DNA of 64,000 nucleotides from Escherichia coli (GTDB lineage Bacteria > Pseudomonadota > Gammaproteobacteria > Enterobacterales > Enterobacteriaceae), in NCBI RefSeq assembly GCF_003334305.1, contig NZ_QOWS01000002.1; one strand, written 5' to 3'. The notes under the pieces were generated by a model. The model did not search any database, had not been told where the DNA came from, and worked only from the letters and a program-made list of their open reading frames with translations. The position numbers were made by a program, and so were the translations under genes. Positions 1-9,511 of the stretch are shown here, piece after piece (positions within the stretch are counted from its first letter, which is position 1; each line of letters starts with the position of its first letter).

Positions 1-64
1 GTGGCGGCCTCAGTCCGGAACAATTTGAAAACAAGAACCTCGCTTAGGCCTGTGTCCATATTAC

Positions 65-1244
65 GTGGGTAGGATCAATAAGAGTGGTTTGTTTTCAATG
101 GACAGAGTCATTCTTGATGACGTTCTATATTCATTGAGCCTACGATACAGAGTGAATCTATCAGAAAACGTAGTTGAAAAATTTATTGAAAGCGATAGCA
201 AAGAGAAGGTTGAACATCTCAGGAAGGAAATTGCTAGGTTTATCAGGTTTGCTAAAGAAAACTTTGATCTTATCCGTGGAGAGTTTATCGTTTTTGTACG
301 AAGAGAATCCTCTATTAAAGATTCGGAGAGAGCTAATGGAATTTTAGAAGATAACTCTGATACTAATTTCCTATTTCGATATCTCCCCCCTAATATTGCC
401 CGTCTGTATGAAAATAGACTATCCGTACAGAATATAGAACGTCTGGGCAATACAAATAAAATTCGGTTGTTAAACAGAAATGTTTTAACGAATGAAATTA
501 TGTTGAAAATTAAAGACTGCGAAAGCACGTATACAAATGGATATATGTATCAATATATAAATAATGCCATTGATAATGATGATGGCACCATATCTATGGA
601 AATTGTCATGGGAAAGCATAGCGGAAAAAAGTTATGAACGGTGGGTGCAGGGAGCAAAAAATCGTACAGTTCTCTTTCATTATAAAAACATTATTACTGA
701 TCTTAACCAAGCGCATTCATGCAGAGCGTCCCTGGGCGCATATTGCCCATTTCATGGAGAAATTCTTCGTAAACTGGATCAAAGGAATGAAGTTCAGAGG
801 GTTAAACTCTCTATTGACGTTCCATTTCTAGAGGGGCTTACTCCAAGTGAACTCTACAAAATTAGAACTGACTACGAATCGAGTTTTAATGCCTTCCGCT
901 CTGTGCTACGTGAAGCTGCGTATGACATAGAAGCAGAAAGTGACCCATATAAGAGGTAGCTGATAAATCAGCATTTTGTCGAGCGCATATGGGATGAAGG
1001 ATTGACCGATATTGAGCAAAAAATACAGACCTATAAGCGGAAAAGTAATAAAGAACTTTTTCTTAACATTGCGCCATCATTGATAGGTTTTATTGGGGCA
1101 CCAAATCCAGTGTCGTTGGCTACAGGAGCCTTTACGATTCTAAAAGAGGTTTTTAATATAACAAGCCACTCTTCAGAAATAAAGAGTCACCCTTCATATT
1201 TCCTTCTCATGACGTCAAAAGGCAAAAATAAATTTTATGACTGA
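65..1244 (+). pseudogene. Low-GC decayed coding region of unknown function: three collinear ORF segments (65-637; 564-959; 1002-1244)
   Basis: Segments 1 and 2 overlap by 74 nt in different frames near A-runs at ~620-660. Segments 2 and 3 share a frame and are separated only by one TAG at 957-959. Track starts at 65 and 1002 are GTG/TTG. Visibly AT-rich compared with flanking DNA. No recognisable motif. Confidence 0.3.
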
Positions 1245-1330
1245 AGCAGTAGAAAATATTGTGAAAATATATTCACTTAAGCAAAAAGGTTGAGGGGCTG
1301 CCGGATCTGTTATTAACGGGGAGCTAATTA

Positions 1331-1358
1331 CTTTGCCGAGTAAAGCAACTCGGCAAAG
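1331..1358. terminator. Perfect 11-bp stem / 6-nt loop hairpin between convergent genes
   Basis: CTTTGCCGAGT-AAAGCA-ACTCGGCAAAG. No clear U-tract on either strand. Confidence 0.3.
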
Positions 1359-1380
1359 TAGCATAGACTTGAGTGAATTA

Positions 1381-1899
1381 TTAGATTTTAACTAGTTCGC
1401 TAGTCTCTACTGAAGCTCTCAAATTAATGGCAGGCTCCTGTGAGCCAACTCGGTATGTGTAAGACTGAGGGTGATCTCTGGCAATGTCAATGAGATCGAT
1501 TAGAGCCTCAGTTGCTCTCAGAGCTTCATTTGGAAGTTCTCGAGGCTCGAAGCTACTGAGTGTGCCGGGCTTCATATGTGCAATCTGCTCATGCCTAATC
1601 TTTAATACTGGTTCTGCGAGTGCAAGGAACTTTTCAGCTGCCAATTTCACAGCCTCTGGTGAAGCAGAATACGAGCCGCGTTTCAAAAACATTGATACAG
1701 ATCTCACATCTTTCCTTTTATCCGCAAGACGCGCTAAACGGATCACCAACATTTCCAACAATGCATTGAGGGCTACCAACTGATTGGCAAGCTCATATCT
1801 TGTACTGCTATTAGTAAGGCCTTCCATCAACCGCTGATACGTATAGATGGTTGTTAGGATATGCCATGCTTCTGCTTCCATTTCTTCAAGAATCGTCAT
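1381..1899 (-). CDS. Hypothetical 172-aa protein; possible HEPN-like R-x5-H motif (KIRHEQIAH)
   Basis: Clean ORF, convergent with the upstream decayed ORFs. AT-rich promoter-like region 1900-2217 is shared divergently with the GTPase gene. Family assignment is inference only. Confidence 0.5.
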   Translation of the reverse strand: MTILEEMEAEAWHILTTIYTYQRLMEGLTNSSTRYELANQLVALNALLEMLVIRLARLADKRKDVRSVSMFLKRGSYSASPEAVKLAAEKFLALAEPVLKIRHEQIAHMKPGTLSSFEPRELPNEALRATEALIDLIDIARDHPQSYTYRVGSQEPAINLRASVETSELVKI

Positions 1900-2253
1900 A
1901 AATACTCCACAATGGTCTGATAGTTATCATGCAGATATCTAAATAACCAATTTAAACTAATTTTATAATTCAACACGTAGCACATGATACTGAATCACTA
2001 CGTATAAATTAGATACTTTAGGATTTTATTTGGACAAGCCCGCCCCGGAAGACAATTCTACCTTAGTGTATATAAGGACCGCTTATGGCACAGAGCGGAC
2101 TGTCAGATGAGGTTTAGTTCTGTACTAATGAGCCGATACAAATTAGCTGCATATACCTGCATTCCAAATAATTTTAGGCAGATATTATCTCCGTGAGTCC
2201 CCTGCCACCTTTCCGGTGTGCGGGGTTTTGTCTTTTTCACCGGGAATACATGT

Positions 2254-3126
2254 ATGAATCCGTCTGATGCCATTGAGGCAATTGAAAAACCGCTCTCCTC
2301 CCTGCCTTACTCGCTTTCCCGTCACATCCTGGAACATCTGCGCAAACTCACCAGTCACGAACCCGTGATTGGCATTATGGGTAAAAGCGGGGCCGGTAAA
2401 TCCTCACTCTGTAATGCACTGTTTCAGGGGGAGGTCACCCCGGTCAGTGATGTTCACGCCGGCACCCGAGAAGTACGGCGCTTCCGTCTGAGTGGCCATG
2501 GTCACAGCATGGTTATCACTGACCTGCCCGGGGTGGGCGAGAGCCGGGACAGGGATGCAGAGTATGAAGCCCTGTACCGTGACATTCTGCCTGAACTTGA
2601 CCTGGTACTGTGGCTGATTAAAGCCGATGACCGTGCCCTGTCTGTGGATGAGTATTTCTGGCGACACATCCTGCACCGGGGACATCAGCAGGTGCTGTTT
2701 GTGGTGACGCAGGCCGACAAAACGGAGCCCTGCCATGAATGGGATATGGCCGGCATTCAGCCTTCTCCCGCACAGGCACAGAACATTCGGGAGAAAACGG
2801 AGGCGGTATTCCGTCTGTTCCGGCCCGTACGTCCGGTTGTTGCCGTATCGGCCCGCACCGGCTGGGAACTGGATACGCTGGTCAGTGCGCTAATGACAGC
2901 ACTTCCCGACCATGCCGCCAGTCCCCTGATGACCCGCCTGCAGGACGAGCTGCGCACGGAATCTGTCCGCGCTCAGGCCCGTGAACAGTTTACCGGTGCG
3001 GTGGATCGGATATTTGACACGGCGGAGAGCGTCTGTGTTGCCTCTGTTGCCCGTACGGTTCTGCGTGCCGTCCGTGACACGGTGGTCTCTGTTGCCCGCG
3101 CTGTATGGAACTGGATTTTCTTCTGA
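2254..3126 (+). CDS. yeeP: YeeP/YkfA-family P-loop GTPase
   Basis: Walker A GKSGAGKSS near the N-terminus; recognised as the GTPase that precedes flu in CP4-44-like islands. Start moved to ATG 2254 (MNPSDAIEAIEK); track ORF begins at GTG 2218. Confidence 0.8.
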   Translation: MNPSDAIEAIEKPLSSLPYSLSRHILEHLRKLTSHEPVIGIMGKSGAGKSSLCNALFQGEVTPVSDVHAGTREVRRFRLSGHGHSMVITDLPGVGESRDRDAEYEALYRDILPELDLVLWLIKADDRALSVDEYFWRHILHRGHQQVLFVVTQADKTEPCHEWDMAGIQPSPAQAQNIREKTEAVFRLFRPVRPVVAVSARTGWELDTLVSALMTALPDHAASPLMTRLQDELRTESVRAQAREQFTGAVDRIFDTAESVCVASVARTVLRAVRDTVVSVARAVWNWIFF

Positions 3127-3280: not shown

Positions 3281-3497
3281 ATTTATAGTGGTTAATGGTC
3301 TGCGAAAAGGCAGCTGAATCTCTTCATCATGCAGAACGGAATTGCACACAACGGACTGATACTTCTCTGGCGGATGAGAGAGGGGAAGCATTTATGTCCG
3401 GGAAAAACCACTTTATCTGACCATGCTGTTTTGTACCTGCCGGTATCCACTTTTGTGGGTACCGGCTTTTTTATTCACCCTCTGTAAGGAAAAGCTG

Positions 3498-6344
3498 ATG
3501 AAACGACATCTGAACACCAGCTACAGGCTGGTATGGAATCACATTACGGGCACCCTGGTGGTGGCTTCCGAACTGGCCCGCTCACGGGGAAAACGCGCCG
3601 GTGTGGCGGTTGTGCTGTCTCTTGCTGCTGTCACATCAGTCCCGGCACTGGCTGCTGACACGGTTGTACAGGCGGGAGAAACCGTGAACGGCGGAACACT
3701 GACAAATCATGACAACCAGATTGTTCTCGGTACGGCCAACGGAATGACCATCAGTACCGGTCTGGAGTATGGGCCGGATAACGAGGCCAATACCGGCGGG
3801 CAATGGATACAAAATGGCGGTATCGCCAACAACACTACTGTCACCGGTGGTGGTCTTCAGAGAGTGAATGCCGGAGGAAGCGTTTCAGACACGGTTATCA
3901 GTGCCGGAGGCGGACAGAGCCTTCAGGGGCAGGCAGTGAATACCACTCTGAACGGCGGTGAGCAGTGGGTACATGAAGGCGGGATTGCAACGGGTACCGT
4001 CATTAATGAGAAGGGCTGGCAGGCCGTCAAATCCGGCGCAATGGCAACCGACACGGTTGTGAATACCGGCGCGGAAGGGGGACCGGATGCAGAAAATGGT
4101 GATACCGGGCAGTTTGTTCGCGGAAATGCCGTACGTACCACTATCAATGAAAATGGTCGTCAGATTGTGGCTGCTGAAGGAACGGCAAATACCACTGTGG
4201 TTTATGCCGGCGGCGACCAGACTGTACATGGTCACGCACTGGATACCACGCTGAATGGGGGGTACCAGTATGTGCACAACGGCGGTACGGCGTCTGGCAC
4301 TGTTGTAAACAGTGACGGCTGGCAGATTATCAAGGAAGGTGGTCTGGCGGATTTCACCACCGTTAACCAGAAAGGCAAACTGCAGGTGAACGCCGGTGGT
4401 ACCGCCACACATGTCACCCTGAAACAGGGTGGAGCACTGGTTACCAGTACTGCAGCAACGGTTCTTGGCAGCAACCGTCTGGGCAATTTCGCGGTGGAAA
4501 ACGGTAAGGCTGACGGCGTTGTTCTGGAGTCCGGTGGTCGCCTGGATGTACTGGAGGGCCATTCAGCCTGGAAAACACTGGTGGATGACGGCGGTACCCT
4601 GGCAGTGTCTGCCGGTGGTAAGGCAACAGATGTCACCATGACATCCGGTGGTGCCCTGATTGCAGACAGTGGTGCCACTGTTGAGGGGACCAATGCCAGC
4701 GGTAAGTTCAGTATTGATGGCACATCCGGTCAGGCCAGCGGACTGCTGCTGGAAAATGGCGGCAGCTTTACGGTTAATGCCGGGGGACAGGCCAGCAACA
4801 CCACTGTCGGACATCGTGGAACACTGATGCTGGCTGCCGGGGGAAGTCTGAGTGGCAGAACACAGCTCAGTAAAGGCGCCAGCATGGTACTGAATGGTGA
4901 TGTGGTCAGTACCGGCGATATTGTTAACGCAGGGGAGATTTACTTTGACAATCAGACAACACCGGATGCCGTACTGAGCCGTGCTGTTGCAAAAGGCAAC
5001 GCCCCGGTAACGTTCCATAAACTGACAACCAGTAACCTCACCGGTCAGGGTGGCACCATCAATATGCGTGTTAGCCTTGATGGCAGTAATGCCTCTGACC
5101 AGCTGGTGATTAATGGTGGTCAGGCAACCGGCAAAACCTGGCTTGCGTTTACAAATGTCGGAAACAGTAACCTCGGGGTGGCAACCTCCGGACAGGGTAT
5201 CCGGGTTGTGGATGCACAGAATGGTGCCACCACAGAAGAAGGTGCATTTGCCCTGAGTCGCCCGCTTCAGGCCGGCGCCTTTAACTACACCCTGAACCGT
5301 GACAGCGATGAAGACTGGTACCTGCGCAGTGAAAATGCTTATCGTGCTGAAGTCCCCCTGTATGCCTCCATGCTGACACAGGCAATGGACTATGACCGGA
5401 TTCTGGCAGGCTCCCGCAGCCATCAGACCAGTGTAAGCGGTGAAAATAACAGCGTCCGTCTCAGCATTCAGGGCGGTCATCTCGGTCACGATAACAACGG
5501 CGGTATTGCCCGTGGAGCCACGCCGGAAAGCAGCGGCAGCTATGGCTTCGTCCGTCTGGAGGGTGACCTGCTCAGAACAGAGGTTGCCGGTATGTCTCTG
5601 ACGACAGGGGTGTATGGTGCTGCAGGCCATTCTTCCGTTGATGTTAAGGATGATGACGGTTCCCGCGCCGGCACGGTCCGGGATGATGCCGGCAGCCTGG
5701 GCGGATACCTGAATCTGACACACACGTCCTCCGGCCTGTGGGCTGACATTGTGGCACAGGGAACCCGCCACAGCATGAAAGCGTCATCGGACAATAACGA
5801 CTTCCGCGCCCGGGGCTGGGGCTGGCTGGGCTCACTGGAAACCGGTCTGCCCTTCAGTATCACTGACAACCTGATGCTGGAGCCACAACTGCAGTATACC
5901 TGGCAGGGACTTTCCCTGGATGACGGCCAGGATAACGCCGGTTATGTGAAGTTCGGGCATGGCAGTGCACAACATGTGCGTGCCGGTTTCCGTCTGGGCA
6001 GCCACCACGATATGACCTTTGGTGAAGGCACCTCATCCCGTGACACCCTGCGCGACAGTACAAAACACGGTGTGAGTGAACTGCCTGTGAACTGGTGGGT
6101 ACAGCCTTCTGTTATCCGCACCTTCAGCTCCCGGGGAGACATGAGCATGGGTACAGCCGCAGCCGGCAGTAACATGACGTTCTCACCGTCCCAGAATGGC
6201 ACGTCACTGGACCTGCAGGCCGGACTGGAAGCCCGTGTCCGGGAAAATATCACCCTGGGCGTTCAGGCCGGTTATGCCAACAGTGTCAGCGGCAACAGCG
6301 CTGAAGGCTATAACGGTCAGGCCACGCTGAATGTGACCTTCTGA
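3498..6344 (+). CDS. flu: Antigen 43 self-associating autotransporter adhesin
   Basis: N-terminus MKRHLNTSYRLVWNHITG with extended signal peptide, repetitive G/T/N-rich passenger, conserved C-terminal beta-barrel ending in F. Start placed at ATG 3498; 948 aa. Confidence 0.9.
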   Translation: MKRHLNTSYRLVWNHITGTLVVASELARSRGKRAGVAVVLSLAAVTSVPALAADTVVQAGETVNGGTLTNHDNQIVLGTANGMTISTGLEYGPDNEANTGGQWIQNGGIANNTTVTGGGLQRVNAGGSVSDTVISAGGGQSLQGQAVNTTLNGGEQWVHEGGIATGTVINEKGWQAVKSGAMATDTVVNTGAEGGPDAENGDTGQFVRGNAVRTTINENGRQIVAAEGTANTTVVYAGGDQTVHGHALDTTLNGGYQYVHNGGTASGTVVNSDGWQIIKEGGLADFTTVNQKGKLQVNAGGTATHVTLKQGGALVTSTAATVLGSNRLGNFAVENGKADGVVLESGGRLDVLEGHSAWKTLVDDGGTLAVSAGGKATDVTMTSGGALIADSGATVEGTNASGKFSIDGTSGQASGLLLENGGSFTVNAGGQASNTTVGHRGTLMLAAGGSLSGRTQLSKGASMVLNGDVVSTGDIVNAGEIYFDNQTTPDAVLSRAVAKGNAPVTFHKLTTSNLTGQGGTINMRVSLDGSNASDQLVINGGQATGKTWLAFTNVGNSNLGVATSGQGIRVVDAQNGATTEEGAFALSRPLQAGAFNYTLNRDSDEDWYLRSENAYRAEVPLYASMLTQAMDYDRILAGSRSHQTSVSGENNSVRLSIQGGHLGHDNNGGIARGATPESSGSYGFVRLEGDLLRTEVAGMSLTTGVYGAAGHSSVDVKDDDGSRAGTVRDDAGSLGGYLNLTHTSSGLWADIVAQGTRHSMKASSDNNDFRARGWGWLGSLETGLPFSITDNLMLEPQLQYTWQGLSLDDGQDNAGYVKFGHGSAQHVRAGFRLGSHHDMTFGEGTSSRDTLRDSTKHGVSELPVNWWVQPSVIRTFSSRGDMSMGTAAAGSNMTFSPSQNGTSLDLQAGLEARVRENITLGVQAGYANSVSGNSAEGYNGQATLNVTF

Positions 6345-6458: not shown

Positions 6459-8981
6459 GTGACTATGTTACAGATAGTCGGCGCGCTGATCCTGCTGATA
6501 GCAGGATTTGCCATTCTTCGCCTTTTGTTCAGAGCATTAATCAGCACGGCTTCTGCGCTGGCAGGGCTTATATTGCTGTGTCTGTTCGGCCCGGCCTTAC
6601 TGGCTGGCTATATCATCGAACGCATAACCCGGTTGTTCCATATTCGCTGGCTGGCAGGCGTATTTCTGACGATTGCCGGAATGATCATCAGCCTCATGTG
6701 GGGACTTGATGGTAAACATATCGCGCTGGAGGCTCACACCTTTGACTCTGTGAAATTTATTCTGACCACCGCTCTCGCCGGTGGTCTGCTGGCTGTTCCC
6801 CTGCAGATCAAAAACATTCAGCAGAACGGGATCACACCAGAAGATATCAGCAAGGAAATTAACGGGTATTACTGCTGTTTTTATACTACCTTTTTCCTTA
6901 TGGCGTGTTCTGCATGCGCACCATTGATCGCGTTACAGTACGATATTTCACCGTCACTGATGTGGTGGGGCGGGTTGTTGTACTGGCTGGCTGCATTAGT
7001 GACGCTGCTATGGGCGGCCAGCCAAATCCAGGCGCTGAAAAAACTGACCTGTGCCATCAGCCAGACACTGGAAGAACAACCGGTGCTCAACAGTAAATCG
7101 TGGCAGACCAGTTTGCAAAACGATTACAGCCTTCCTGACTCACTGACGGAGCGCATCTGGCTGACGCTCATTTCTCAACGGATTTCCCGGGGAGAGCTGA
7201 GGGAATTTGAACTGGCAGACGGAAACTGGTTACTGAACAATGCCTGGTATGAAAGAAACATGGCAGGGTTTAACGAACAGTTGAAAGAGAACCTGTCATT
7301 CACACCTGATGAACTGAAAACGCTCTTCCGGAACCGCCTGAATTTATCACCGGAAGCGAATGACGATTTTCTCGATCGTTGCCTGGACGGCGGTGACTGG
7401 TATCCGTTTTCAGAAGGTCGCCGTTTTGTATCATTCCACCACGTGGATGAGCTTCGTGTCTGTGCCTCCTGCGGGCTGACAGAAGTACATCATGCCCCGG
7501 AAAATCATAAGCCGGATCCGGAATGGTACTGCTCCTCTCTTTGTCGCGAAACAGAAATACTGTGTCAGGAAATTTATGAACGCCCTTACAACTGTTTTAT
7601 TTCCGATGCAACGGCGAATGGTCTGATTCTCATGAAACTGCCGGAAACCTGGAGTACAAATGAGAAAATGTTTGCTTCCGGAGGGCAGGGACATGGGTTT
7701 GCCGCTGAACGGGGAAACCATATTGTCGACAGAGTCCGTCTGAAAAACGCACGGATCCTCGGTGATAATAATGCCAGAAATGGAGCAGACAGACTGGTCA
7801 GCGGAACAGAAATCCAGACGAAATATTGTTCAACTGCAGCCCGTAGCGTCGGTGCGGCATTCGACGGACAAAACGGACAGTATCGTTACATGGGAAATAA
7901 TGGCCCCATGCAACTGGAAGTCCCCCGTGATCAGTATGCCGGCGCTGTTGAAACTATGAGGAATAAGATCCGCGAAGGTAAAGTACCCGGTGTAACCGAT
8001 CCCGCAGAAGCGTCCCGGCTGATTCGTCGGGGACATCTGACTTATACCCAGGCCCGTAATATCACCCGGTTCGGGACCATCGAATCGGTCACTTATGATA
8101 TTGCCGAGGGTTCGGTTGTCAGTCTGGCGGCCGGAGGGATCAGTTTTGCCCTGACGGCATCGGTCTTCTGGCTCAGCACTGGCGATCGCGATGCTGCCCT
8201 GCAGACAGCTGCTGTCCAGGCAGGAAAAACCTTCACCCGCACACTGGCTGTCTACGTCACAACCCAGCAACTTCACCGGCTCAGTGTTGTTCAGGGTATG
8301 CTGAAGCACATTGATTTTTCGACTGCCAGCCCGACTGTCCGACTGGCTCTTCAGAAGGGGACTGGTGCAGGAAATATCAGTGCCCTGAACAAAGTAATGA
8401 AGGGTACGCTGGTGACATCTCTGGCACTGGTAGCTGTCACAACCGGCCCTGACATGATCAAAATGTTGCGGGGACGGATCTCCGGTGCGCAGTTCATCAG
8501 GAATCTTGCCGTGGCATCTTCCGGTGTGGCAGGTGGAGCTGTCGGGTCAGTGGCGGGCGGGATACTGTTCAGTCCACTGGGACCATTTGGTGCACTGACA
8601 GGGCGTGTGGTTGGCGGTGTTCTGGGGGGAATGATTGCCTCCGCTGTATCAGGAAAAATTGCCGGAGCGCTGGTTGAAGAAGATCGCGTCAAAATTCTGG
8701 CAATGATTCAGGAGCAGGTGACATGGCTTGCCGGCAGTTTCCTGCTGACCGGACATGAGATTGAAAATCTGAACGAGAATCTGGCCCGTGTTATCGATCA
8801 GAATGCTCTGGAGATCATTTTCGCCGCCGGTATACAACAACGGGCCGCGACCAATATGTTAATCAAACCACTAGTGGTCAGTATCATCAGGCAACGCCCC
8901 GTCATGGAATATGATGCATCCCATCTCGGCAATATGGTTAACCGACTGGAAGAAGCATTCCCCCCGGAGCTCCCGGCATAA
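6459..8981 (+). CDS. yeeR: YeeR-family inner membrane protein, 840 aa
   Basis: Hydrophobic N- and C-terminal segments; recognised as the gene following flu in CP4-44-type islands. Confidence 0.75.
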   Translation: MTMLQIVGALILLIAGFAILRLLFRALISTASALAGLILLCLFGPALLAGYIIERITRLFHIRWLAGVFLTIAGMIISLMWGLDGKHIALEAHTFDSVKFILTTALAGGLLAVPLQIKNIQQNGITPEDISKEINGYYCCFYTTFFLMACSACAPLIALQYDISPSLMWWGGLLYWLAALVTLLWAASQIQALKKLTCAISQTLEEQPVLNSKSWQTSLQNDYSLPDSLTERIWLTLISQRISRGELREFELADGNWLLNNAWYERNMAGFNEQLKENLSFTPDELKTLFRNRLNLSPEANDDFLDRCLDGGDWYPFSEGRRFVSFHHVDELRVCASCGLTEVHHAPENHKPDPEWYCSSLCRETEILCQEIYERPYNCFISDATANGLILMKLPETWSTNEKMFASGGQGHGFAAERGNHIVDRVRLKNARILGDNNARNGADRLVSGTEIQTKYCSTAARSVGAAFDGQNGQYRYMGNNGPMQLEVPRDQYAGAVETMRNKIREGKVPGVTDPAEASRLIRRGHLTYTQARNITRFGTIESVTYDIAEGSVVSLAAGGISFALTASVFWLSTGDRDAALQTAAVQAGKTFTRTLAVYVTTQQLHRLSVVQGMLKHIDFSTASPTVRLALQKGTGAGNISALNKVMKGTLVTSLALVAVTTGPDMIKMLRGRISGAQFIRNLAVASSGVAGGAVGSVAGGILFSPLGPFGALTGRVVGGVLGGMIASAVSGKIAGALVEEDRVKILAMIQEQVTWLAGSFLLTGHEIENLNENLARVIDQNALEIIFAAGIQQRAATNMLIKPLVVSIIRQRPVMEYDASHLGNMVNRLEEAFPPELPA

Positions 8982-9056: not shown

Positions 9057-9293
9057 ATGATTCACCTGTTCAAAACCTGCATTATTACTGGCGTCATTCT
9101 GGGGTTAACGTGGTCTGCCCCACTCCGGGCACAGGATCAACGTTACATCGGTATACGCAATACAGATACGATATGGCTCCCGGGAAATATTTGTGCTTAC
9201 CAGTTCCGGCTGGATAATGGCGGAAACGGTGAAGGATTTGGCCCCTCACCATCACTCTGCAACTCAAAGACAAATATGGTCAGACGCTGGTGA
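9057..9293 (+). CDS. Small hypothetical secreted protein (78 aa) with N-terminal signal peptide
   Basis: MIHLFKTCIITGVILGLTWSAPLRAQ signal-like N-terminus; AGAGAGG ribosome-binding site upstream. Confidence 0.4.
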   Translation: MIHLFKTCIITGVILGLTWSAPLRAQDQRYIGIRNTDTIWLPGNICAYQFRLDNGGNGEGFGPSPSLCNSKTNMVRRW

Positions 9294-9511
9294 CCAGAAA
9301 AATGGAAACGGAAGCTTTTGGTGACAGTAATGCCACGCGAACCACAGACGCATTTCTGGAAACGGAGTGCGTGGAAAATGTCGCCACAACCGAAATCATT
9401 AAAGCAACTGAAGAAAGTAACGGCCATCGTGTCAGTCTGCCGTTATCGGTTTTCGATCCCCAGGACTACCATCCACTGCTAATTACCGTTTCCGGAAAAA
9501 ACGTTAACTGA
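9290..9511 (+). CDS. Small hypothetical protein (73 aa)
   Basis: ORF overlapping the previous stop (GTGA); alternative ATG at 9302; weak ribosome-binding site. Confidence 0.25.
   Translation: MTRKMETEAFGDSNATRTTDAFLETECVENVATTEIIKATEESNGHRVSLPLSVFDPQDYHPLLITVSGKNVN

Follow-up and report, generated by a model that had tools for sequence, protein, structure and literature searches.

Remnant of a 459-codon accessory gene in the serX island of Escherichia coli: lesions, probable order of decay and intact relatives

The cryptic prophages and islands of Escherichia coli hold decayed genes that have been broken by IS elements, frameshifts and nonsense codons. In addition, prophages can carry accessory genes at fixed sites, and in P2 the interval between gpA and the portal gene is a hotspot that holds old and tin (PMC9122126). 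An accessory gene of 1380 nt with an ATG start, encoding the 459-aa 'hypothetical protein' WP_000282642.1, is found intact in strain 28RC1 and in many O157:H7 genomes. In the O157-type island its neighbours are a type I restriction-modification system on one side and a 172-aa HEPN AbiU2-like gene on the other. The locus described here has the same position in the serX (tRNA-Ser) island, and almost certainly represents a non-functional remnant of this one 459-codon gene that was inactivated in a stepwise manner, as judged from sequence comparison.

The window is the whole stretch of DNA that was analysed, 64,000 nucleotides of the E. coli chromosome. Its bases 1–16 kb are 100.0% identical to strain A7 (NZ_CP028767.1, 1949371–1965370), and G+C around the pseudogene is 39%, compared with ∼52% in the remaining window. 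The features are collected in Table 1. Further genes of the island include DUF932, antirestriction, JAB/RadC-like, CbeA/CbtA toxin-antitoxin and DUF4942 genes, and the core genes ghrA, csg, mdo, flg and rne are found beyond it. The island has a second pseudogene at 9057–9511 (+), where ORFs 9057–9293 and 9290–9511 represent an IrmA-family gene; RefSeq marks this gene as frameshifted in the identical genomes A7 and UMB200201_11.

Table 1. Features of the window; nucleotide (nt) and codon numbers refer to the intact gene
Feature	Position	Strand	Properties
IS3 right end	1..77	+	RefSeq annotation of identical sequence in UMB200201_11 and A7; forms 5′ breakpoint of pseudogene
ORF 1	65–637	+	190 aa, GTG start
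Pseudogene remnant	78..1244	+	nt 212–1380 (codons 72–459 plus stop) of 459-codon gene; orthologue WP_000282642.1
ORF 2	564–959	+	131 aa
A6 tract	625..630	+	A8 in every intact allele; −2 frameshift
In-frame TAG	957..959	+	CAG to TAG by C-to-T transition (C1093T), Gln365 to stop (Q365*)
ORF 3	1002–1244	+	80 aa
Native TGA stop of ancestral gene	1242..1244	+	Same position as stop of intact 459-aa gene
Convergent 172-aa gene, HEPN AbiU2-like domain	1381..1899	−	Pfam PF18734, E = 7.1e-5; RefSeq hypothetical protein WP_000153723.1; intact, not part of pseudogene
YeeP-like GTPase	2218–3126		Island cargo
Ag43	3423–6344		Island cargo
840-aa membrane-anchored ORF	6459–8981		Island cargo
tRNA-Ser(GGA)	15427–15514	−	Abuts the island
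CP4-type genomic island	1 to ∼15514		First 15.4 kb of the window

At the DNA sequence level, bases 78–1244 align end to end with the intact 1380-nt gene (L003, 2790–4169), with 11 substitutions, one 2-base deletion and ∼99% identity; therefore, the pattern of three ORFs is not a matter of chance. A preliminary description of the locus had reported these ORFs, with a single TAG separating the last two in one frame, and translation of the frame from base 63 bears this out. That description considered a recently inactivated gene the leading possibility, and comparison with the intact homologues supports it. The frame was, however, thought to have been of ∼390 codons, whereas the ancestral frame had 459 and it is the survivors, codons 72–459, that number 388. 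In-silico repair (addition of AA and a T957C change) gives a 388-codon frame whose 388-aa product has 7 amino-acid differences from the intact protein. The gene is found at only one place in the matching genome and there is no second copy.

The −2 shift in the A tract ends the first ORF at the codon 635–637, and the true frame moves to that of the second ORF. In the intact allele the A8 context is GGA AAA AAA AG, which encodes G-K-K-S, and A8 is found in E. coli 28RC1 and E24377A as well as in the Serratia, Morganella, Pectobacterium and Salmonella loci. Two A6 runs had been noted next to the overlap and both are present, but the second (656–661) is the same in the intact allele and only the first represents a lesion. 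The second lesion is the nonsense codon; at the Q365 column, homologues have Q, K, E or D.

A third lesion, truncation of the 5′ end by IS3 at junction 77/78, was missed in the preliminary description, which listed the frameshift and the stop correctly; as a result, both the original length of the gene and the number of lesions were underestimated. The IS3 transposase CDS stops at approximately base 47 of the window, and the terminal inverted repeat ends with ...CGTGGGTAGGATCA at base 77. Homology to IS3-free alleles begins exactly at base 78, as determined by megablast of window 1–2200 against 5426 complete E. coli genomes. Strain AZ159 and the window are identical through base 77 and diverge thereafter. 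The GTG at base 65 and the first 13 bases of the first ORF belong to the IS3 terminal repeat, and the start of this ORF is therefore an accident of the junction. The truncation removed the promoter and codons 1–71.

The gene is present in 57 of the 5426 complete genomes. The pseudogene allele, 99.7–100% identical to the window, is found in 16 of these. Another 35 genomes are at 98.7–98.9% identity, and all but ETEC1706 have a tract of intact length (34/35); the remaining 6, at 91.4% identity, are intact. The gene appears intact in 40 genomes in all, and the tract lengths are A8 in 40, A7 in one and A6 in 16. The A7 of ETEC1706 represents an independent −1 change in the same tract. Independent damage is also seen in TUM1886, which has an IS2 insertion at approximately nt 164 of the same gene.

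Homopolymers are a classic site of sequencing and assembly errors, and one alternative is that the frameshift in the A run, perhaps along with the TAG, is an error of this type in an intact gene. The ETEC1706 record may be an example, as it has a frameshifted hsdM adjacent to its A7 tract and an assembly error is possible there. The A6 plus TAG allele, on the other hand, is shared by 16 complete genomes that are independent of one another and come from unrelated projects. In addition, the exact fragment products of the window, the 179-aa and 80-aa proteins, are present on 181 and 176 public contigs, respectively, and error is excluded on this basis. The 5′ end has also been physically replaced by IS3, and an IS3-free relative carries two more inactivating lesions. 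The chance that the split frame arose from sequencing or assembly error is considered negligible. Collinear homology to a gene that is intact elsewhere, disabling lesions relative to its orthologues and the reality of these lesions in independent assemblies all characterize the locus as a pseudogene.

The other alternative is that of three genuine small genes, two of them overlapping and all expressed independently. PGAP does call a CDS at 98–637 (WP_001616057.1) and, in AZ159, one equivalent to 1002–1244 (WP_143362936.1), but these calls are automatic and the products are named 'hypothetical protein'. The alignment of full-length homologues covers six genera of enterobacteria (E. coli, Salmonella, Pectobacterium, Serratia, Morganella and Pantoea), and 22/22 are single uninterrupted frames of 453–459 aa. 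None of the 22 displays three separate conserved genes with the same boundaries, the pattern by which the preliminary description proposed to recognize independent genes. Outside of this allele every homologue is one continuous gene, and within it the ORF boundaries match the lesions exactly, with the first GTG in IS3. Promoter and terminator scans were uninformative, with more hits in shuffled controls than in the actual sequence, and there was no promoter-like excess. Three independent genes are thus very improbable. The ORFs are by-products of the lesions: nothing in the locus puts the frame right, and the promoter and start codon have been lost. A fragment may still be translated to some extent, for example the 179-aa product from the ATG at base 98 annotated by PGAP.

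A further question is whether the gene can be switched on again, with the A tract serving for phase variation by strand slippage or for programmed frameshifting. The E. coli, Serratia, Morganella, Pectobacterium and Salmonella copies have kept A8 even though nearby synonymous sites differ, and slippage has occurred on at least two independent occasions, producing A6 in this allele and A7 in ETEC1706. Nevertheless, the homologues from Pantoea and Serratia fonticola have an interrupted A tract, AAA is the favoured Lys codon in DNA of 39% G+C, and 40 of the 57 genomes have A8. Moreover, 16/16 A6 genomes have Q365* together with either the IS3 truncation or the upstream nonsense and deletion lesions, and regain of A8 would therefore not restore the gene. 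A phase-variable contingency gene was rejected on the grounds that all A6 copies bear these further irreversible lesions, and a programmed ribosomal frameshift because all 22 full-length homologues are in one frame whether the tract is A8 or broken. A switch of either type is most unlikely; the A tract is a mutational hotspot.

Three extant genome states provide a view of how the remnant may have formed. The earliest is that of LSN03-016011/A, which has no IS3 and a full-length locus with the type I restriction-modification system still upstream. It carries L19* (TTA to TAA, T56A), a 4-bp deletion of nt 128–131, the same −2 shift and the same Q365*. In the intermediate state, seen in AZ159 and seven others, the lesions are as in the earliest state and IS3 abuts approximately nt 26 of the gene. 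In the window state, which the window shares with seven genomes including A7 and UMB200201_11, IS3 abuts nt 212; this arrangement is 180 bp shorter than that of AZ159 and the two upstream lesions have been removed. As the IS3-free relative has the same frameshift and stop and two further lesions, death of the gene preceded the arrival of IS3.

Most simply, decay began with the point lesions, i.e. the −2 slip in the A8 tract, the CAG-to-TAG change, the upstream TTA-to-TAA nonsense change and the 4-bp deletion. Insertion of IS3 at approximately nt 26 would have followed, and a 180-bp deletion adjacent to IS3, extending up to nt 211, would then have produced the window arrangement with loss of the two upstream lesions. 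This order is inferred by parsimony over the three extant states and not from a dated phylogeny. The lesions themselves are read directly from the alignment, which places three in the window and five across the history of the gene. Non-synonymous and synonymous changes in the dead lineage are at a ratio of ∼5 to 3, a count too small by itself to demonstrate relaxed selection. The series of no IS3, IS3 at nt 26 and IS3 at nt 212 offers a small but clean example of stepwise decay followed by an IS-adjacent deletion.

Upstream of base 1 of the window, as seen in strain A7 (L027, 1–8047), IS3, a degenerate IS1F and fecIRABC replace the type I restriction-modification system; fecI is annotated as frameshifted in A7. 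The restriction-modification system is found upstream in O157 and LSN03 strains. This suggests an IS-mediated reshuffling of the left arm of the island in the pseudogene lineage. On the downstream side, the HEPN AbiU2-like gene is found beside the 459-codon gene in all serX-island alleles examined. Its product has no PADLOC, NCBIfam or PHROG match, and may represent a HEPN protein of the abortive-infection type that has outlasted its dead neighbour.

The family to which the intact protein belongs has 332 representatives in a profile search (50% clustering, E ≤ 1e-3), spread over many phyla, most of them ∼450 aa in length and aligning end to end. Searches of the intact protein in PADLOC, NCBIfam, PHROGs and Pfam gave nothing significant; in PADLOC-DB 2.0 the best match, to Csm5 at E = 0.012 and 13 bits, is noise, and no defence HMM recognizes the protein. 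DUF6236 is the sole recurring hint, found in 6/70 members with E values no lower than 2e-3. Against solved structures, profiles built from the close and broad alignments gave nothing meaningful; 50,697 phage records searched by tblastn were without a match, and no papers were found on the protein accessions or on DUF6236. A search for related loci with the close alignment gave only three E. coli-type prophage contigs, and in the one examined (L024) the ORF layout is as in E24377A.

Proposed protein structures were obtained with AlphaFold. A first model, from a 23-sequence alignment, was poor (pLDDT 54.5) and was discarded; that from a 70-sequence alignment has a pLDDT of 83.2 and a pTM of 0.81. 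In the predicted fold, an N-terminal alpha/beta region is followed by a beta-sheet domain at ∼185–248 and by long C-terminal helices. A membrane-spanning segment at residues 398–430 was considered, but the Kyte-Doolittle mean over 19 residues reaches no more than 1.31 and model confidence is low in this region; no transmembrane claim is made. Foldseek comparison with AFDB50 gave almost only uncharacterized proteins of the same family, from Proteobacteria, Bacteroidota, Myxococcota and Actinomycetota, and comparison with BFVD gave no match. The fold comparisons provided no functional lead.

Genomic neighbours follow a consistent pattern. In E24377A, a PD-T4-3 gene (E = 4.7e-137) is divergent from the family member and an HNH endonuclease is near. 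In Morganella, a P2-like prophage carries the family member in the interval from gpA to the portal gene, with a PD-T4-6-like kinase adjoining it. In these prophages (L010–L012, 8001–11033) it forms a two-gene insert with the 534-aa Ser/Thr kinase at the gpA-gpQ hotspot; the same gene pair, with the kinase after the family member, is found behind an integrase in Serratia (L009), and the E. coli copies are without the kinase. Distant members come immediately behind a type III restriction-modification pair accompanied by DpdF-like and WYL genes. Another distant member follows Mrr, a methyltransferase and HsdS and precedes a gene with a faint DndB-like match, and yet another is near TIR_2 and PIN genes. 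The Pantoea copy adjoins an SMEK_N protein and RelB/YafQ. Defence-type neighbours were not found at the Pectobacterium locus, where the only mobile neighbour is a transposase, or on a plasmid-like Serratia fonticola contig, and a Salmonella phage-like contig has no clear defence neighbour. Adjacency to recognized defence genes thus recurs in unrelated genomes, in a small sample of ∼10 loci without statistical control.

By association with these neighbours, it is tentatively suggested, at somewhat short of an even chance, that the family represents an anti-phage or abortive-infection gene. The family could then, with a like degree of doubt, be a new single-gene system of this type, a solo cassette that moves between prophage hotspots, restriction-modification operons and islands. 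If so, the repeated inactivations that arose separately in E. coli (this allele, the A7 of ETEC1706 and the IS2 insertion of TUM1886) would be a consequence of the cost that the gene imposes on fitness when there is no need for it. Because the family has no structural match and is repeatedly found beside known defence genes, the intact allele of O157:H7 or E24377A could reasonably be entered in a phage-defence screen; the window holds the dead remnant only.

At the annotation level, RefSeq (PGAP) shows window 98–637 as a CDS and the rest of the locus without annotation. AZ159 has two fragments as separate proteins in RefSeq. There is no pseudogene flag in either case. WP_001616057.1, WP_021513033.1 and WP_143362936.1, the 179-aa and 80-aa 'hypothetical proteins', should be regarded as pieces of one pseudogene and not as separate families.

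Comparison with its intact relatives places the remnant closest to the WP_000282642.1 locus of 28RC1 and O157:H7, which shows 98.8% DNA identity to window 78–1300 and lies likewise beside the HEPN AbiU2-like gene, a GTPase and Ag43/Cah. The two differ in that the former is intact (ATG, A8, CAG) with type I restriction-modification upstream, whereas the remnant has IS3, IS1 and the fec operon upstream. WP_000282641.1, a 459-aa protein of a prophage region in E24377A and SE11, is of the same family, intact and at 91% DNA identity. Its context differs, as it is divergent from the PD-T4-3 GIY-YIG defence gene, with the HNH endonuclease and without an AbiU2-like neighbour. The intact family occupies loci of the same kinds as the single-gene anti-phage systems of prophage hotspots, such as PD-T4-3, PD-T4-6 and the genes of the P2 old/tin hotspot (PMC9122126); the likeness is in genomic location, and no PADLOC model matches in sequence. 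The remnant itself is an ordinary pseudogene, a feature of a familiar kind left by the routine decay of a gene in a mobile island. It decayed in the same manner as the broken genes in the cryptic prophages and islands of E. coli, and does not differ from them in kind.
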